Below are positions 14 to 58,762 of a DNA stretch of 64,000 nucleotides, piece after piece (within the stretch, counting starts at the first letter, position 1; the number at the start of each line of letters is the position of its first letter). The translations under genes were made by a program, and so were the position numbers. The stretch is taken from the NCBI RefSeq assembly GCF_044324875.1, contig NZ_CP172185.1, one strand, 5' to 3'. The DNA is from Escherichia coli (GTDB lineage Bacteria; Pseudomonadota; Gammaproteobacteria; Enterobacterales; Enterobacteriaceae). The notes beneath the pieces are model-generated. The model worked only from the letters and a program-made list of their open reading frames with translations. It did not search any database and was not told the origin of the DNA.

Positions 14-1390
14 TCATTGCACTGGCACCTTCAGAGGGATCACCGGCACAAAGCCGGGATGCGTAATGGCATTACGCCGGATAATGTCCGCGTCACGCGC
101 CGCGTTATCAAACCAGGTCGCCGCCAGCACCAGCGCGGGTAAAACCTCATCCGGTGTGCGCTGAATGATCCGCGCAGACTGTTCAAGGCGCATGTTGATA
201 TCCGCATTCAGATCTGCTTTCACCCGGCGCAGCGCCAGAAACAGCGCATCACTGGTTGTACGGGACAACTCCTTATCAATTGTCGTATTCAGTGTGTCGC
301 GAATGTCAGTCAGTTCTTCCCACGTCGGCAGGTCAACCGTGCTTTTCACCGCCGGTGCATTGTTCAGTGCCGGATGCGTGACGGAAGGCCAGCCAGTGCT
401 CTGCGCAGGTGTTGTTGCCTGCCCCATTGCGGCATTCTGCATCACCGCGGAAGTTGTTGGCGCAGGCAATCGTGTGACGGCATACGCCGCTTCGCTGATT
501 GCGGTCGTACGAAGGGTGCTGGCAACCACGTTACGCTGCTGCGTCGCCGTAGCGGTAGTTTTACTGTCCGTTTTCCAGACGCCGCGCGGTTGCAGATCGC
601 TGCCGAGGCTGACACCGGAAAGCGTTTTGATCATGGTGACCAGGTCGCTGGCGTTACCATAAAGGCGTTTCCCGGTACGCCACATTTTCTGCACCTGCTC
701 AACGAAATTTTTGCCTGACGATGGCGGCGGCAGAAGTACCGAGATATCCCCCTGCAACAGCCTGGCGGCATCCGATACGGCAGAATCCACCACTTTCATC
801 GCATCAGAAACATACCCAAGCATTGTGCTGGCATTACCGACGACGTCGTTCTGCACAAAATCTGCCACGCCATCGATACTGAAACCACTGAAACTGTCAC
901 TGATGCAGTCATCCAGTGCAGAACAGGATGACATCAGCGTCTGCGCCGTCGCCGCACCTGATGTGGGGTAAGAGAGTTCTCCCGCTTCGACAAACTTCAG
1001 GTCAAAGCGGACAATACGCCCTTCACTCTTCGATGTGCTGACCCGAACCTCCCCGTCAACACAGACTTTCAGCTCACCGTATGTCGGATGGACAAGCGTG
1101 CCGGGACCGGGTTTATTCAGCGCGTCAATCAGGCGATCGCGCTGGTCAAAGCAGTCATCTCCCACCACATAAGCCGTGATGGACGGGCGAAAAGTGATTT
1201 TCCCCAGGTCTTCGGTATAGGGTTTGTCGCGGTTCGGGTATTCATGTGTTTCCACACGGCGACCGGTTCCCGCACTTTCTTCTTCAACCTTAAACGGCAC
1301 GCCGCGAAATGACGCGTCCTGAAGTCTGTCACGCCAGCCTGAAGACGACGAAAGTAATGAAGGTCGGGTGGGAAATGAGGATAAATCCAT
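14..1390 (-). CDS. Mu N-like DNA circularization protein (tail module)
   Basis: 458-aa ORF, N-terminus WRDRLQDASFRGVPF typical of Mu N family; downstream of tape measure gene. Confidence 0.55.
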   Translation of the reverse strand: MDLSSFPTRPSLLSSSSGWRDRLQDASFRGVPFKVEEESAGTGRRVETHEYPNRDKPYTEDLGKITFRPSITAYVVGDDCFDQRDRLIDALNKPGPGTLVHPTYGELKVCVDGEVRVSTSKSEGRIVRFDLKFVEAGELSYPTSGAATAQTLMSSCSALDDCISDSFSGFSIDGVADFVQNDVVGNASTMLGYVSDAMKVVDSAVSDAARLLQGDISVLLPPPSSGKNFVEQVQKMWRTGKRLYGNASDLVTMIKTLSGVSLGSDLQPRGVWKTDSKTTATATQQRNVVASTLRTTAISEAAYAVTRLPAPTTSAVMQNAAMGQATTPAQSTGWPSVTHPALNNAPAVKSTVDLPTWEELTDIRDTLNTTIDKELSRTTSDALFLALRRVKADLNADINMRLEQSARIIQRTPDEVLPALVLAATWFDNAARDADIIRRNAITHPGFVPVIPLKVPVQ

Positions 1391-24310: not shown

Positions 24311-24397
24311 ATATGTACCTCCGGTATACATATTACATGATTGAAATGAACCTTCAAGATACTTGTACCTTAACGGTACAAGGGTTTTAATTTCGTT
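24311..24397. promoter_or_regulatory. Immunity switch: divergent promoters with palindromic operators
   Basis: Palindromes ATGTACC-tcc-GGTATACAT (24314-24332) and CTTGTACC-ttaac-GGTACAAG (24362-24382); no Shine-Dalgarno before the cI ATG. Confidence 0.6.
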
Positions 24398-25072
24398 ATG
24401 AAAACAATCCATGACATCCGGCGGTCTAACGCCAGAAAACTGAGAGATGGTGTTGGCGGGAATTCTTCCTTTGCCACTATGATTGATCGCGAGCCAACCC
24501 AGACCAGCAGGTTTATGGGAGATGGTGCTACTAAAAATATCGGTGACAGCATGGCACGACACATCGAAAAATGTTTCGACCTGCCTGTCGGATGGCTCGA
24601 TCAAGAACACCAGACAACGAACATCACAAAAAAACCTGATGTTTCAATCACTAATAAACAAATCACATTAGTCCCTGTCATATCATGGGTACAGGCCGGA
24701 GCATGGAAAGAAGTTGGATATTCTGAGGTTGATTTGAGCACAGCAGAAACGTATCCCTGCCCTGTACCCTGTGGGGAAATGACTTATATCTTGCGGGTGA
24801 TAGGTGATTCAATGATTGATGAGTACCGCCCGGGAGACATGATTTTTGTCGATCCTGAAGTACCTGCCTGCCACGGTGACGACGTTATTGCATTGATGCA
24901 CGATACAGGTGAAACCACCTTCAAAAGGTTGATAGAAGATGGGACACAGCGTTATCTCAAAGCGTTAAACCCAAACTGGCCTGAGCCTTACATTAAGATC
25001 AACGGTAATTGCTCTATAATTGGAACTGTGATTTTCTCAGGAAAACCAAGAAGATACAAAATCAAAGCCTAA
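24398..25072 (+). CDS. CI-like repressor with HTH and LexA-like S24 peptidase domain
   Basis: 224-aa ORF; N-terminal HTH and C-terminal GDSM...K autocleavage domain. Confidence 0.85.
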   Translation: MKTIHDIRRSNARKLRDGVGGNSSFATMIDREPTQTSRFMGDGATKNIGDSMARHIEKCFDLPVGWLDQEHQTTNITKKPDVSITNKQITLVPVISWVQAGAWKEVGYSEVDLSTAETYPCPVPCGEMTYILRVIGDSMIDEYRPGDMIFVDPEVPACHGDDVIALMHDTGETTFKRLIEDGTQRYLKALNPNWPEPYIKINGNCSIIGTVIFSGKPRRYKIKA

Positions 25073-25111: not shown

Positions 25112-25140
25112 TTGACAATGTACCTTTGGGATACATAATG
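25112..25140 (+). promoter_or_regulatory. pL-like promoter with overlapping operator
   Basis: TTGACA, 16-17 bp spacer containing TGTACC...GGATACA operator-like half-sites, then CATAAT. Confidence 0.55.
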
Positions 25141-25261: not shown

Positions 25262-25306
25262 TCAGGTCCCCATCAACAAGTAACTGATAACTTGAGGAGG
25301 TGTGAA

Positions 25307-25513
25307 ATGCACAAAACAGAACCAAAAATCGTCGCGCCCGGATACACAAATGAGGAAATTTACGAGTGGATGGCAAAGAAGCTGGCAGCTATAAACCAGC
25401 TTCGTGAAGTGCTGTCTTATCGACAGGAAACAATAGACTCCTTAAAAAAACTGGATCAGGAAATCACGGTTTTATCACAGGATGTTACTTTAGATATTGT
25501 GCAGACAAATTAG
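25307..25513 (+). CDS. Hypothetical 68-aa protein, first gene after pL
   Basis: Strong GAGGAGG ribosome-binding site 6 nt before ATG; no arginine-rich motif. Confidence 0.5.
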   Translation: MHKTEPKIVAPGYTNEEIYEWMAKKLAAINQLREVLSYRQETIDSLKKLDQEITVLSQDVTLDIVQTN

Positions 25514-25919
25514 GATCCCATTCATTTTCGTCAAAATCATCAAAGTGATGAATTTGTGATCTCCAGTCTCGATAATCTAAAAATTTCTGGGCGGTTACGC
25601 TTATTTTATCAAGCGTGAGTTCATCCTGAATTGAAAGAAGAAGTTCATCAAATTTCATCTCATTAATCTGTTTTGGCATCCAGTGATGCTTCATCAGAAT
25701 AAGGTGAACCAGAGCTTTTTTCCCATTCAACTGATTATAGGGAGTGCCGAATTTCTTCCGGTGCTCATGTAAGACAAGGTCCAGAAGAGTAAGTAATGTT
25801 GCCCTTGATTCAACTTTGCTTATTTCGACTGATGACACTACCCCACTGATTTCAATGCCCCGATACTTTCCAACATTTTCACAGTGGGATTTGTACAGCG
25901 TATAGATATTACCGGACAT
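25485..25919 (-). CDS. Hypothetical 144-aa protein antisense to the pL operon
   Basis: AT-rich ORF with AAGGA ribosome-binding site; 3' end overlaps 25307-25513 convergently by 29 nt. Confidence 0.5.
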   Translation of the reverse strand: MSGNIYTLYKSHCENVGKYRGIEISGVVSSVEISKVESRATLLTLLDLVLHEHRKKFGTPYNQLNGKKALVHLILMKHHWMPKQINEMKFDELLLSIQDELTLDKISVTAQKFLDYRDWRSQIHHFDDFDENEWDPNLSAQYLK

Positions 25920-26070
25920 TTCTTTTCCTTTTGCGTTGTTGGGGATAACCAGATTAACCGAATCCTTGTTGTTGGGGAATAACCAGGTCCACCTCGCCTG
26001 ATGTGGCTAAAAGCAGGCACATAACAGCTAAGTATTTTCAACCAGAGAGAATCCTTAGCGTTGTGGTGAA

Positions 26071-26387
26071 TGCGGCTCAGCGCACGCGGGTTAAGGTTGA
26101 GGCTGACAGTCGACCTTCTGTGGATACCCACCCGCCTGGTGTGCAACCTTCGCCAGGCACCGGGAGGCACCCGGCACCACAACTTTATGCTGCGTGTAGT
26201 CTTGGCGGTACCAGCTTTTACCCTTGCTTCCGGCTGGTACCGTCCTTTTTACAAAACAGAGAAGAGCATTACCGGACGACGGGCTCATAACTCAATCCAT
26301 CCGGGCGGCTGCCACCGCAGGTGTTCTTCTCTGTTTTGTGGAGAAACTAATCGGCTTTGCAGGGTCGATATGATGAGGAGCAGCAAA
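26071..26387. other. GC-rich structured noncoding segment (candidate cis-acting RNA or ncRNA)
   Basis: Nested inverted repeats including a 12-bp stem GGCGGTACCAGC/GCTGGTACCGTC (26211-26251); short ORFs in several frames without ribosome-binding sites. Confidence 0.3.
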
Positions 26388-26750
26388 ATGGCTAGCGAAC
26401 GCAGTACTGATGTGCAAGCATTTATCGGGGAGCTGGACGGCGGCGTATTTGAAACCAAAATCGGCGCAGTTCTCAGTGAAGTCGCTTCCGGTGTGATGAA
26501 CACGAAAACCAAAGGTAAGGTCTCACTCAACCTGGAAATCGAACCATTTGATGAAAACCGTGTGAAAATCAAACACAAACTCTCATATGTTCGCCCGACT
26601 AACCGCGGGAAAATTTCCGAAGAAGACACCACCGAAACGCCGATGTATGTCAATCGCGGTGGTCGCCTGACTATTCTGCAGGAAGACCAGGGACAATTAC
26701 TGACTCTTGCCGGTGAACCTGACGGAAAACTCCGCGCAGCAGGTCATTAA
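26388..26750 (+). CDS. Hypothetical early-left protein (CPS-53 YfdP-like)
   Basis: 120-aa product from Met 26388 preceded by GAGGAG; the upstream in-frame extension from 26070 looks noncoding. Confidence 0.5.
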   Translation: MASERSTDVQAFIGELDGGVFETKIGAVLSEVASGVMNTKTKGKVSLNLEIEPFDENRVKIKHKLSYVRPTNRGKISEEDTTETPMYVNRGGRLTILQEDQGQLLTLAGEPDGKLRAAGH

Positions 26751-29628: not shown

Positions 29629-29847
29629 ATGTACTTGACACTTCAGGAGTGGAACGCTCGCCAGCGACGCCCAAGAAGCCTTGAAACAGTTCGTCGATGG
29701 GTGCGCGAATGCAGGATATTCCCTCCTCCGGTTAAGGATGGAAGAGAGTATCTGTTCCACGAATCAGCGGTAAAGGTTGACTTAAATCGACCAGTAACAG
29801 GTAGCCTTTTGAAGAGGATCAGAAATGGGAAGAAGGCGAAGTCATGA
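29629..29847 (+). CDS. xis: Excisionase Xis (lambda)
   Basis: 72-aa product MYLTLQEWNARQRRPRSLETVRRW... matches lambda Xis as recalled. Confidence 0.9.
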   Translation: MYLTLQEWNARQRRPRSLETVRRWVRECRIFPPPVKDGREYLFHESAVKVDLNRPVTGSLLKRIRNGKKAKS

Positions 29848-30895
29848 GCGCCGGGATTTACCCCCTAACCTTTATATAAGAAACAATGGATATTACTGCT
29901 ACAGGGACCCAAGGACGGGTAAAGAGTTCGGATTAGGCAGAGACAGGAGGATAGCAATTACTGAAGCAATACAGGCAAACATTGAGTTATTTTCAGGACA
30001 CAAACACAAGCCTCTGACAGCGAGAATCAACAGTGATAATTCTGTTACGTTACATTCATGGCTTGATCGCTACGAAAAAATCCTCGCCAGCAGAGGAATC
30101 AAGCAGAAGACACTTATAAATTACATGAGCAAAATTAAAGCAATAAGGAGGGGGCTACCTGATGTTCCACTTGAAGACATCACCACAAAAGAAATTGCAG
30201 CAATGCTCAATGGATACATAGACGAGGGCAAGGCGGCGTCAGCCAAGTTAATCAGATCAACACTGAGCGATGCATTCCGAGAGGCAATAGCTGAAGGCCA
30301 TATAACAACAAACCCGGTCGCTGCCACTCGCGCAGCAAAATCAGAGGTAAGGAGATCAAGACTTACGGCTGACGAATACCTGAAAATTTATCAAGCAGCA
30401 GAATCATCACCATGTTGGCTTAGACTTGCAATGGAACTGGCTGTTGTTACCGGGCAGCGAGTTGGTGATTTATGCGAAATGAAGTGGTCTGATATCGTAG
30501 ATGGATATCTTTATGTCGAGCAAAGCAAAACAGGCGTAAAAATTGCCATCCCAACAGCATTGCATGTTGATGCTCTCGGAATATCAATGAAGGAAACACT
30601 TGATAAATGCAAAGAGATTCTTGGCGGAGAAACCATAATTGCATCTACTCGTCGCGAACCGCTTTCATCCGGCACAGTATCAAGGTATTTTATGCGCGCA
30701 CGAAAAGCATCAGGTCTTTCCTTCGAAGGGGATCCGCCTACCTTTCACGAGTTGCGCAGTTTGTCTGCAAGACTCTATGAGAAGCAGATAAGCGATAAGT
30801 TTGCTCAACATCTTCTCGGGCATAAGTCGGACACCATGGCATCACAGTATCGTGATGACAGAGGCAGGGAGTGGGACAAAATTGAAATCAAATAA
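29825..30895 (+). CDS. int: Integrase Int (lambda, tyrosine recombinase)
   Basis: 356-aa product MGRRRSHERRDLPPNLYIRNNGYYCYRDPRTGKEF... matches lambda Int as recalled. Confidence 0.95.
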   Translation: MGRRRSHERRDLPPNLYIRNNGYYCYRDPRTGKEFGLGRDRRIAITEAIQANIELFSGHKHKPLTARINSDNSVTLHSWLDRYEKILASRGIKQKTLINYMSKIKAIRRGLPDVPLEDITTKEIAAMLNGYIDEGKAASAKLIRSTLSDAFREAIAEGHITTNPVAATRAAKSEVRRSRLTADEYLKIYQAAESSPCWLRLAMELAVVTGQRVGDLCEMKWSDIVDGYLYVEQSKTGVKIAIPTALHVDALGISMKETLDKCKEILGGETIIASTRREPLSSGTVSRYFMRARKASGLSFEGDPPTFHELRSLSARLYEKQISDKFAQHLLGHKSDTMASQYRDDRGREWDKIEIK

Positions 30896-44358: not shown

Positions 44359-45831
44359 ATGTCATTGTTGCAAATTTTGCAAGGCACGTTTCGTCTTAGC
44401 GACACAAAAACGCTGCAATTGCCTCAGCTAACGTTAAACGCGGGTGATAGTTGGGCGTTTGTCGGTTCGAATGGAAGCGGGAAATCGGCCCTGGCCCGCG
44501 CGCTGGCGGGGGAACTTCCGCTTTTGAAAGGTGAACGGCAAAGCCAGTTTTCCCACATCACTCGTCTCTCCTTCGAGCAATTGCAAAAGCTCGTCAGCGA
44601 CGAATGGCAGCGGAATAACACCGATATGCTCGGCCCTGGCGAAGATGACACCGGGCGTACCACGGCTGAAATCATTCAGGATGAAGTAAAGGATGCACCG
44701 CGTTGTATGCAACTGGCGCAGCAGTTCGGTATTACCGCCCTCCTCGACCGACGCTTTAAATACCTTTCCACTGGCGAGACGCGAAAAACCCTGCTGTGTC
44801 AGGCGCTGATGTCGGAGCCTGACTTGTTGATTCTTGATGAGCCGTTCGATGGCCTGGATGTTGCCTCACGTCAGCAGCTGGCTGAGCTACTCGCCTCGTT
44901 ACATCAGTCCGGTATTACTCTGGTACTGGTGCTCAATCGCTTCGATGAGATCCCGGAATTTGTCCAGTTTGCTGGCGTGCTGGCGGATTGTACGTTAGCG
45001 GAAACGGGCGCTAAAGAGGAACTGCTCCAACAAGCACTCGTTGCGCAACTGGCGCATAGCGAACAGCTTGAAGGTGTACAACTGCCGGAGCCGGATGAAC
45101 CTTCAGCACGTCACGCCTTACCCGCCAACGAACCGCGCATTGTGCTGAACAACGGCGTGGTTTCTTATAATGATCGCCCCATTCTTAATAACCTTAGCTG
45201 GCAGGTGAATCCAGGTGAACACTGGCAAATTGTCGGGCCAAATGGCGCGGGAAAATCGACGTTATTAAGCCTGATTACTGGCGATCATCCGCAAGGTTAC
45301 AGCAACGATTTGACGCTTTTCGGACGACGTCGCGGCAGCGGCGAAACCATCTGGGATATCAAAAAGCATATCGGTTACGTCAGCAGTAGTTTGCATCTGG
45401 ATTACCGGGTCAGTACTACTGTGCGTAATGTGATTCTTTCTGGCTATTTTGATTCGATTGGCATTTATCAGGCCGTTTCGGATCGCCAGCAAAAACTGGT
45501 GCAGCAGTGGCTGGATATTCTCGGCATTGATAAACGCACGGCTGACGCTCCGTTCCATAGTCTTTCCTGGGGGCAACAACGCCTGGCGCTGATCGTCCGC
45601 GCGCTGGTGAAACATCCGACGTTGCTTATTCTCGATGAACCACTACAGGGGCTTGATCCGCTCAATCGCCAGCTTATCCGCCGGTTTGTTGATGTGCTGA
45701 TTAGCGAAGGTGAAACGCAATTGTTGTTTGTTTCGCACCACGCTGAAGATGCGCCTGCCTGTATTACCCATCGTCTTGAGTTCGTGCCAGACGGCGGACT
45801 CTATCGCTATGTGCTGACAAAAATAAATTGA
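44359..45831 (+). CDS. modF: ABC-type ATPase ModF
   Basis: 490-aa product from Met 44359 with two ATP-binding cassettes. Confidence 0.9.
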   Translation: MSLLQILQGTFRLSDTKTLQLPQLTLNAGDSWAFVGSNGSGKSALARALAGELPLLKGERQSQFSHITRLSFEQLQKLVSDEWQRNNTDMLGPGEDDTGRTTAEIIQDEVKDAPRCMQLAQQFGITALLDRRFKYLSTGETRKTLLCQALMSEPDLLILDEPFDGLDVASRQQLAELLASLHQSGITLVLVLNRFDEIPEFVQFAGVLADCTLAETGAKEELLQQALVAQLAHSEQLEGVQLPEPDEPSARHALPANEPRIVLNNGVVSYNDRPILNNLSWQVNPGEHWQIVGPNGAGKSTLLSLITGDHPQGYSNDLTLFGRRRGSGETIWDIKKHIGYVSSSLHLDYRVSTTVRNVILSGYFDSIGIYQAVSDRQQKLVQQWLDILGIDKRTADAPFHSLSWGQQRLALIVRALVKHPTLLILDEPLQGLDPLNRQLIRRFVDVLISEGETQLLFVSHHAEDAPACITHRLEFVPDGGLYRYVLTKIN

Positions 45832-56350: not shown

Positions 56351-56426
56351 TGGTGGGTCGTGCAGGATTCGAACCTGCGACCAATTGATTAAAAGTCAAC
56401 TGCTCTACCAACTGAGCTAACGACCC
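56351..56426 (-). tRNA. lysQ: tRNA-Lys (UUU)
   Basis: Reverse complement is a 76-nt tRNA-Lys with CCA end; position 7 of the lysT operon. Confidence 0.95.
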
Positions 56427-56459
56427 CTTGCGGGATTATGCTGCTTTAATCATTCAGGA

Positions 56460-56535
56460 TGGTGGGTCGTGCAGGATTCGAACCTGCGACCAATTGATTA
56501 AAAGTCAACTGCTCTACCAACTGAGCTAACGACCC
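56460..56535 (-). tRNA. lysZ: tRNA-Lys (UUU)
   Basis: Identical 76-nt tRNA-Lys copy. Confidence 0.95.
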
Positions 56536-56583
56536 ATACGGGTGTTACCTGAAAGATTTCTACTCGGAACCAATCTTTAAAAT

Positions 56584-56600
56584 TGGTGGGTCGTGCAGGA
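56584..56600 (-). repeat. tRNA-Lys 3'-end fragment at start of a ~70-bp spacer repeat
   Basis: TGGTGGGTCGTGCAGGA then diverges; the spacer recurs at 57077-57150. Confidence 0.5.
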
Positions 56601-56681
56601 TGACTCGCTTCGCTCGCCCTACGGGCCGTTGCTGGCGCAACGTTATCCTTCACGCTTAACATCTGAGTTTGATGTTAAAAT

Positions 56682-56757
56682 TGGTGGGTCGTGCAGGATT
56701 CGAACCTGCGACCAATTGATTAAAAGTCAACTGCTCTACCAACTGAGCTAACGACCC
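56682..56757 (-). tRNA. lysY: tRNA-Lys (UUU)
   Basis: 76-nt tRNA-Lys. Confidence 0.95.
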
Positions 56758-56760
56758 GAG

Positions 56761-56836
56761 TGGTGGGTGATGACGGGATCGAACCGCCGACCCCCTCCTT
56801 GTAAGGGAGGTGCTCTCCCAGCTGAGCTAATCACCC
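56761..56836 (-). tRNA. valZ: tRNA-Val (UAC)
   Basis: Reverse complement GGGTGATTAGCTCAGCTGGGAGAGCACCTCCCTTACAAGGAGG...CCA. Confidence 0.95.
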
Positions 56837-56887
56837 GATACTGCGCTGGATACTACAAACTACTTCCACCGAACCCACCGTAATTAG

Positions 56888-56963
56888 TGGTGGGTCGTGC
56901 AGGATTCGAACCTGCGACCAATTGATTAAAAGTCAACTGCTCTACCAACTGAGCTAACGACCC
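56888..56963 (-). tRNA. lysW: tRNA-Lys (UUU)
   Basis: 76-nt tRNA-Lys. Confidence 0.95.
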
Positions 56964-56965
56964 GG

Positions 56966-57041
56966 TGGTGGGTGATGACGGGATCGAACCGCCGACCCCC
57001 TCCTTGTAAGGGAGGTGCTCTCCCAGCTGAGCTAATCACCC
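56966..57041 (-). tRNA. valT: tRNA-Val (UAC)
   Basis: 76-nt tRNA-Val. Confidence 0.95.
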
Positions 57042-57076
57042 GATACTACGCTGGATACTACAACTAACTAGGTTAG

Positions 57077-57093
57077 TGGTGGATCGTGCAGGA
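57077..57093 (-). repeat. Second tRNA 3'-end fragment with spacer repeat
   Basis: TGGTGGATCGTGCAGGA followed by the same ~55-nt spacer as at 56601. Confidence 0.5.
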
Positions 57094-57176
57094 TGACTCG
57101 ACTTCGTCTCGCCCTTCGGGCCGTTGCTGATGCAACGTTATCCTTCACGTTTTACTACCGCTTCCACCTTAGCGAT

Positions 57177-57252
57177 TGGTGGGTCGTGCAGGATTCGAAC
57201 CTGCGACCAATTGATTAAAAGTCAACTGCTCTACCAACTGAGCTAACGACCC
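57177..57252 (-). tRNA. lysT: tRNA-Lys (UUU)
   Basis: 76-nt tRNA-Lys, first gene of the operon. Confidence 0.95.
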
Positions 57253-57415
57253 ACTTTTCGTTGCTTTCGGGTTGTTTGATATCCCGTGGCAACGGCGGCA
57301 TATATTACTGATTTCAGACTTGAGCGCAACAAAAATTTCGATGCAGATCACTCAACTGCTTATGATTCGCACGACACGACCAGAAATAATGCGACTTCTG
57401 GTCGTGTGTTATGCA

Positions 57416-58207
57416 TTACATCGCGTTCAGACGTTTTTGCGCCTGTTTAGCGCCATCAGTACCAGGATATTTACTGATAACCTGCTGGTATACGGCTTTC
57501 GCTTTTGCGGTGTCACCTTTGTCCTGCATGATGACGCCGACTTTAAACATCGCATCTGCAGCCTTTGGTGACTTCGGATAGTTTTTCACTACCGAAGCAA
57601 AATAGTACGCCGCATCATCTTTTTTACCCTTGTTGTAGTTTAACTGACCCAGCCAATAATTGGCGTTTGGCAGGTAAGTTGAATCAGGGTAATTTTTGAT
57701 GAAATTCTGAAATGCCACCATTGCGTCATCCTGGCGGGATTTATCCTGCACCAGCGCAATAGCTGCATTGTAATCCGTGTTTGCATCACCGCTTTTCACC
57801 GGCGCGCCAGCATTCGCAGTACCAGCATCAGCTGTCGGCGTCGTTGATGCCGCCGCACCGCTTTGATCGCCGCTGGTTGATTGCGCCGCTGCACCACCGC
57901 TGCTGAGGCTATCGATCTGCAACAGGATCTGCTTTTGCCGCTCCACGACCTGATTCAGTTGATACTGATTTTCCTGAATCTGACCACGCAGGGAATCAAT
58001 ATCGGATTGATTATCAGAGAGTTGTTGCTGGAGTTGGGTTAAAAGCTGGCTGTGAGCATTTGAAATACGCTCAAGTTGAGTGACGCGGTCTTCGACCGAG
58101 CCTGAGCCGACACTACTGATTGGTGCCTGAGCAAAAGCGGCCCAGGGGGCCGCTATACCAACCAGTAACGACAGACTCAATAGTTGATGTCTGAAGTTAC
58201 TGCTCAT
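57416..58207 (-). CDS. cpoB: Cell division coordinator CpoB (YbgF)
   Basis: 263-aa product with signal peptide, coiled coil and TPR region. Confidence 0.95.
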   Translation of the reverse strand: MSSNFRHQLLSLSLLVGIAAPWAAFAQAPISSVGSGSVEDRVTQLERISNAHSQLLTQLQQQLSDNQSDIDSLRGQIQENQYQLNQVVERQKQILLQIDSLSSGGAAAQSTSGDQSGAAASTTPTADAGTANAGAPVKSGDANTDYNAAIALVQDKSRQDDAMVAFQNFIKNYPDSTYLPNANYWLGQLNYNKGKKDDAAYYFASVVKNYPKSPKAADAMFKVGVIMQDKGDTAKAKAVYQQVISKYPGTDGAKQAQKRLNAM

Positions 58208-58216
58208 GCAATTCTC

Positions 58217-58762
<546 letters not shown>

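Follow-up and report, generated by a model that had tools for sequence, protein, structure and literature searches.

A structured RNA locus upstream of yfdP in an Escherichia coli lambdoid prophage and its relation to sRNA-17, STnc100 and DicF

Introduction

sRNA-17 of E. coli K1 RS218 is a 193-nt RNA encoded in an mEp460-like prophage, with RACE-mapped ends and a Northern signal in a lysogen; no Rfam homologue was reported by its authors (PMC7719688). STnc100 has itself been described as a prophage-encoded sRNA, and PasD, which was found by Hfq RIL-seq, is a reported relative of STnc100.

For terminator read-through, HK022-type put RNAs require the beta-prime zinc-binding domain of RNA polymerase. 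These RNAs entered our analysis through a sequence-only reading of the locus studied here, which described some 300 bp upstream of an early-left gene as GC-rich, rich in inverted repeats and untranslated, and proposed that it encodes either a cis-acting antitermination RNA like put or a phage sRNA. We examined this proposal across a 64,000-nucleotide stretch of E. coli DNA (hereafter the window), which carries an SfV/SfIV/mEp460-like lambdoid prophage.

Results

Prophage setting and early-left promoter

The immunity region of the prophage contains a CI-like repressor gene (24398-25072, + strand), opposed by Cro-like and CII-like genes on the - strand, and palindromic oR operators of the form TGTACC..GGTACA at 24313-24332 and 24364-24380. 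Just past the cI terminator, a promoter scan identified a likely pL on the + strand (25112-25139, TTGACA-16-CATAAT, 11 of 12 matches). It is overlapped by a third operator copy at 25118-25137, ATGTACCTTTGGGATACATA, which repeats the two oR operators. This site is probably the true pL/oL, and the early-left orientation of transcription given by the sequence-only reading is supported. The repressor-controlled pL is not adjacent to the segment but lies about 900 nt upstream of it.

Between pL and the leader lies a gene of the phrog_1744 family (25292-25513, + strand, 73 aa). It is convergent with a phrog_5286 gene on the - strand (25485-25919, 144 aa), the two overlapping by about 29 nt. Both are of unknown function, and the name "exclusion locus" previously given to these upstream genes has no support from any annotation. 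Upstream of the phrog_5286 gene, TTGTTGGGGATAACCAG is present as direct repeats at 25939 and 25973.

The early-left genes that follow the segment are yfdP (ATG at 26388), yfdQ, yfdR, a PAPS-reductase-like gene, orf114, xis (29539) and int (29825-30895). As the sequence-only reading had noted, no N homologue is evident in this short operon: comparison with PHROGs gave no N-like protein from yfdP through int. Some 25 kb of other sequence separates the int end of the prophage (30895) from a host chromosomal cluster on the - strand (56354-58316) with seven tRNA genes, two RtT elements and a CpoB/ybgF thermometer, all above their Rfam cut-offs.

The segment is a structured, non-coding RNA locus

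The compositional claims made for the segment were borne out. GC content is 0.555 at 26000-26199 and 0.56 at 26100-26299, against 0.355-0.44 in the upstream flank (25500-25999) and 0.38-0.475 downstream. Inverted repeats include 9-nt arms at 26060-26068/26175-26183, 10-nt perfect arms at 26206-26215/26233-26242 and 18-nt arms at 26251-26268/26322-26339. The reported 12-bp stem with a 17-nt loop is real, although it had been placed about 7 nt too far right (26211-26251 rather than 26204-26215/26233-26244), and the element as a whole begins at about 26059, slightly left of the original start at 26071. RNA from the + strand of 25990-26395 has a folding energy of -170.1 kcal/mol (z = -6.17), a value equalled by 0 of 100 shuffles; the - strand of the same interval reaches z = -2.38 only. 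This asymmetry agrees with the frequent G.U pairs in the conserved core described below, which place the RNA on the + strand.

RefSeq/PGAP annotates no ncRNA here and calls the equivalent of 26063-26373 (record 1644-1954) a pseudogene, "hypothetical protein, frameshifted". Together with an open frame that runs from 26070 into yfdP, this call could be taken to indicate a protein-coding gene in decay or a longer N terminus for YfdP. We regard this as very improbable. The extension frame is not conserved among homologues: a stop closes it 1 codon before yfdP in phage LLS, at 5 codons in phiNP and at 50 in a Klebsiella phage, and a frameshift in it separates two almost identical phages, ST64B and 118970_sal3. 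In line with the earlier view that the reading frames of the segment are junk, the 106-aa and 95-aa ORFs have no match to any PHROG family. Substitutions preserve the RNA helices instead. YfdP matches phrog_204 starting at its residue 1, and its gene has its own ribosome-binding site, GAGGAG at 26374-26379, 8 nt before the ATG. Sequences matching the element occur in 2858 of 5426 complete E. coli genomes.

A conserved five-helix core

Comparison of 13 phage records and 120 IMG/VR contigs resolved the locus into three modules: the core, the linker with its terminator, and H2. Ahead of them, the leader start at 25990-26059 (+ strand) comprises the conserved CACCUCGCCUGAUGUGGCUAAAAGCAGGCAC and a small hairpin (26027-26039/26047-26059). 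Similarity to SfV-type phages starts at 25989; in phage LLS the CACCUCGCCUGAUGUGGCUAAAAGCAGGCAC motif lies about 12 nt past the pL start, and it also precedes the core in phiES15, SfV and sal3.

The leader start is followed by the core, a 124-nt five-helix junction at 26060-26183 (+ strand), which scores 84.4 bits (E about 1e-21) with a covariance model, R1, built from a MAFFT alignment of 19 sequences. Helix P1 (26060-68/26175-83) closes the junction, with AAU as J1/2. It encloses hairpin P2 (26072-87), a variable domain P3 (26088-26133), hairpin P4 (26134-58) and hairpin P5 (26160-74), which has an AGGCA loop and stacks on the 3' strand of P1. This one common architecture came out of independent MFE folds for each of 13 divergent variants, and RNAalifold on the plain MAFFT alignment of the 19 core sequences predicted 24 pairs, with compensatory change at 14. 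R1 retrieved 105 copies of the core, 60 of them distinct. Across these 60 sequences, 96.9% of cells are paired, compared with 28-48% when partners are slid, and 16 of the 26 pairs have changed on both sides; the covariation score is 0.331 versus at most 0.073 in the slid controls, and none of 500 shuffles reaches 0.331. The alignment of the 60 sequences was fitted to R1 and so favours structure, but the MAFFT-only result and a blind mutual-information scan give the same helices. That scan, while recovering the helices, yielded no convincing tertiary pair, and a pseudoknot was not retained. The motifs GGUGAAU and GGA..GCACC are invariant or at least 90% conserved in the core.

A search of the whole window with R1 gave one match only, so neither the pR operon nor any other part of the window carries a second core. 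A boxA/nut-like site was considered 5' of the core, where UGCUCU(U/C) occurs; this motif is the 3' arm of the upstream hairpin (26027-26059 here, an H2-like hairpin in P1 and sal3). The locus also lacks a boxB-type pentaloop hairpin and, by PHROGs, an N-like protein, as would belong to a lambda-type nut site. Directly upstream of the core the promoter scan gave nothing, and we found no convincing sigma-70 promoter, the only -10 candidate being GAGAAT at 26047-52.

Linker, terminator and H2

Downstream of the core, a linker at 26184-26203 (+ strand), UUUAUGCUGCGUGUAGUCUU, is unpaired in the consensus model and is a candidate seed. sRNA seeds are typically conserved independently of terminator sequence. 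The linker sequence UGCUGUGUGUAGUCUU is retained in SfV, ST64B, phiES15, Kp4866-6, phiNP and LLS, even where, as in phiES15 and LLS, the terminator hairpin downstream is unrelated. The linker is followed by a DicF-like intrinsic terminator (26204-26250, + strand) with a 12-13 bp stem containing one G.U pair, a 15-17 nt loop and CUUUUU. A simple terminator scan had overlooked this hairpin because only loops of 3-8 nt were allowed.

The third module, H2 (26251-26339, + strand), is an inverted repeat whose stem of about 20 bp closes a three-way junction and encloses the conserved ACGGGCUCAUAAC(U/C)CAAUCC. RNAalifold on seven phages gave 33 pairs in H2, five with compensatory change, and its 5' half is conserved also in LLS, Flotzy, Pantoea PA-1 and P1. 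Between H2 and the yfdP start codon, a small hairpin is predicted by the MFE fold at 26350-26369, just before the Shine-Dalgarno sequence.

Two longer-range pairings were considered and discarded. A putative antiterminator joining 26005-26020 with 26208-26223 differs in SfV on both sides without compensation, and pairing of the linker with the yfdP start (26185-93/26380-88) is lost in ST64B.

Relation to Rfam families and to sRNA-17

The Rfam covariance scan that had been suggested as a check did return a relative. STnc100 (RF02076) aligns over all of its model positions (1-206/206) with 26042-26253, scoring 42.8 bits (E = 3.9e-7); this is below the gathering cut-off of 47 bits, and the region is missing from a scan at gathering threshold. 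All related leaders score 33-42 bits. The architecture nevertheless matches that of STnc100: a multi-helix core closed by GGUG/CACC, a CCGGG-AGGCA-CCCGG hairpin and then a terminator. In the reverse direction, the STnc100 copy of phage 933W scores 85.2 bits with R1, whose source alignment includes that copy. DicF (RF00039) aligns weakly with the window, at 23 bits (E = 0.08) against a cut-off of 48 bits and 76.7 bits for a true DicF, with the linker occupying the 5' seed position of DicF in the cmscan alignment. We also asked whether the 5' part of the 190-nt Qin DicF precursor is a degenerate core, and rejected this at only 4.7 bits and a fold z of -1.7.

In mEp460 coordinates, the full-length primers used for sRNA-17 (PMC7719688, Table S2) delimit 2355-2548, a stretch that begins with the first base of P1 and ends with the terminator U-tract, and the published Northern probe (PMC7719688) detects the + strand. 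The counterpart in the window is 26059-26250, 192 nt that comprise core, linker and terminator, and the window terminator is homologous to the RACE-mapped 3' end of sRNA-17. From 26202 to 26400 the window is about 94% identical to mEp460.

A strain deleted for sRNA-17 showed a rise in yfdP from 0.49 to 47 reads and in yfdR from 0 to 8.5 (PMC7719688). The deletion corresponds to mEp460 2381-2498, with the terminator kept and a resistance cassette in place, and the rise in yfdP therefore does not tell cis from trans action.

Distribution of the core

The commonest placement of the core is between DicF and dicB. In E. coli K-12 MG1655 the unannotated dicF-dicB spacer of Qin (1,649,454-1,649,581; record 2455-2582) is a core copy scoring 111.3 bits, and the yfdO-yfdP spacer of the K-12 prophage CPS-53 has none. 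In 933W the core, which is the canonical STnc100, lies about 75 nt past stx2B. HK639 has one in its late leader between Q and the holin gene (44810-44923, record coordinates), flanked by annotated terminators, and the N-less phage LLS has one in its pL leader. The ban operon of P1 contains two tandem cores (2241-2342 and 2502-2625, record coordinates) with an H2-like hairpin between them, and a P1-like IMG/VR contig (6391-9809) has four cores on one strand, interleaved with five tRNA genes.

Some of these neighbourhoods have further features. One P1 core sits just before tciA, and the first overlaps the annotated antisense ORF upl, which casts doubt on upl; the upl region also contains plp, and a "dicF-like region" is annotated just past Pban. 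The sal3 (about 2330-2500) and Klebsiella (about 2170-2295) leaders have, upstream of the core, a long stem around two hairpins that bear the canonical tRNA T-loop sequences CUGGUUCGAUUCCAG and GGUCCGUUCAAUUCGGAC; ARAGORN reports no tRNA at these sites. On the pR side of ST64B, 21-97 (- strand, inside sb41) matches isrK at 64.3 bits, above the Rfam cut-off.

The variety of genes that follow the core, namely dicB, tciA, kil, yfdP, nanS-p and a holin gene, would be expected if the modules were RNase III/E/P processing and stability signals that cut polycistronic transcripts and tune translation of the next gene, with the sRNA as a by-product. The stem of H2, directly upstream of the yfdP ribosome-binding site, would suit such a role, as would the interleaving of cores with tRNA genes in the P1-like contig, where 4 nt lie between the end of one core and tRNA-Ser. 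Moreover, sRNA-17 has its 5' end at the foot of P1, and a strong promoter is not evident. We nonetheless consider this explanation unlikely. ARAGORN was negative for a tRNA-like gene in the window and at nine related loci, and RNase III is known to cut the dicBF transcript upstream of DicF, in sequence that is not a core. The invariance of GGUGAAU and GGA..GCACC, in addition, suggests a specific partner rather than generic double-stranded RNA.

Comparison with put RNAs

To compare the locus with put RNAs, we built a second covariance model, R2, from ten sequences (HK022 putL and putR, HK639 putL and seven further putL). Its controls were recovered at 95.5 bits for HK022 putL, 93 bits for HK639 putL and 46.5 bits for HK022 putR. 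R2 gave no + strand match in 26040-26390, its best hit anywhere in 20-32 kb having an E of about 0.9 (0.88), and no match in any related leader. A resemblance by eye between GCGGGUUAAGGUUGA and GCGGGUUCAGGAUGA of putL was gone under the model. The paired pL and pR sites that are the hallmark of put are likewise lacking, with a single core copy on the early-left side. Given the negative put model and the single copy, we reject membership of the put family; of the two options originally proposed, the sRNA stands and the HK022 put comparison does not.

A put-like function without put kinship is a separate matter. The core might act in cis on RNA polymerase or against Rho and so let early-left transcription pass the terminator at 26204-26250 and those beyond it. 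SfV-type phages and LLS have no N-like protein, yet have one or two intrinsic terminators between pL and the first gene, and the core lies upstream of a terminator in SfV, ST64B, phiES15, Kp4866-6, LLS, 933W and the late leader of HK639. Several cores also occur in long, mostly untranslated operons of P1 type. Such a function fits poorly, however, with cores placed after a terminator, or without one: the Qin-type core comes after the DicF terminator, and the P1 core has none downstream. The core of Stx phages sits in an operon that is antiterminated by Q, and the boxA-like motif beside the core is merely a hairpin arm. With similarity to put nil, no core in the pR operon and the homologue sRNA-17 accumulating as a terminated 193-nt RNA, we think cis-antitermination by the core quite improbable.

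Discussion

For the window segment, non-coding status, strand, structure, covariation, homology and gene context are established; for its homologue sRNA-17, so are discrete size, mapped ends and expression (PMC7719688). On balance we favour, with moderate confidence, the view that the locus is the gene and leader for a structured prophage sRNA of about 190 nt (26059-26250), followed by H2 as a leader element before yfdP. The element is in that sense a known kind of prophage sRNA, unannotated and below threshold in Rfam, and mostly ordinary.

Transcripts that start at pL, or that are begun or processed at the foot of P1, would mostly stop at the terminator and release the sRNA. The terminator would thereby attenuate transcription into yfdP-yfdQ-yfdR and on to xis-int and, as it lies between the immunity region and xis-int, may help to keep the excision genes silent in the lysogen. 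By analogy with sRNA-17, STnc100/PasD and DicF, the released RNA probably acts in trans through its linker as an Hfq-type sRNA.

Several observations count against the sRNA reading. The STnc100 score is below the Rfam cut-off, and no convincing promoter adjoins the core. A base-pairing sRNA does not need a conserved 124-nt five-way junction, and the cores of P1 and of dicB-type prophages have no terminator downstream. It is conceivable, though on present evidence doubtful, that the five-helix junction of about 120 nt is itself the functional RNA domain, a mobile phage module that would bind some part of the host machinery and work in cis on long phage operons. The partner may be RNA polymerase, Rho, a ribonuclease, the ribosome or Hfq. 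If the mobile-module reading is true, then sRNA-17, STnc100, PasD and the DicF-adjacent spacer would make up a single class of RNA with an undescribed function. The covariation-supported five-way junction is, in either case, common to sRNA-17, STnc100 and the dicF-dicB spacer. The analysis thus links sRNA-17, STnc100/PasD and the DicF terminator, a connection that was not drawn in the papers we consulted on these RNAs. As an unannotated core lies between dicF and dicB in K-12, experiments on core function are possible in the standard laboratory strain.

Put RNAs and the window element are both structured RNAs of the early-left transcript of an N-less lambdoid phage, upstream of terminators. 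Put, however, consists of two stem-loops of about 70 nt and occurs as a putL/putR pair, whereas the window has one 124-nt five-way junction. HK639 keeps the two apart: the annotated putL-like RNA at its pL resembles HK022 putL and not the core, and its core copy is separate, in the late leader.

The likeness to DicF lies in the 3' part. The window linker and terminator align with all 52 nt of DicF (UUGGCGGUAxCAG...UUUUAC...CUG..ACCGxCC), both the Qin DicF and the window element belong to a repressor-controlled operon of early-left type, and in K-12 a core copy adjoins DicF directly. The order of modules differs, being core then terminator in the window and DicF then core in Qin. As the seed sequence differs from that of DicF, targeting of ftsZ cannot be assumed for the window RNA.

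With STnc100/PasD, the window element has in common GGUGAAU and CACCGGGAGGCACCCGGCACCA, the succession of five-helix core, linker and intrinsic terminator, and location in a prophage. The sequences of P2-P4, the linker and the terminator are all different, and canonical STnc100 lies past stx2B, or near Q and lysis genes, while the window copy is in the early-left leader.

The window RNA and sRNA-17 are not identical over their full length, as the core interior and the linker differ. P2-P4 have other sequence in the same fold (over 105 nt, with numerous gaps, 61 of 82 aligned positions match), and the linker is UGCUGCGUGUAGUCUU in the window versus AGCCACUGCUU in sRNA-17. The targets of sRNA-17 are for this reason not transferable to the window RNA. 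Nor does the window share the upstream region that contains the reported ArcA site, and the window copy would fall among the variants that the authors of sRNA-17 called "degenerative" (PMC7719688). The locus is nonetheless the same, between the immunity region and yfdP and upstream of the latter. The first 16 nt (CGUUGUGGUGAAUGCG) are identical at 16 of 16 positions, and the last 75 nt agree at 59 of 65 aligned positions. The two RNAs have the P1 closing helix and the DicF-like terminator in common, at lengths of 193 nt for sRNA-17 and 192 nt for its counterpart in the window.
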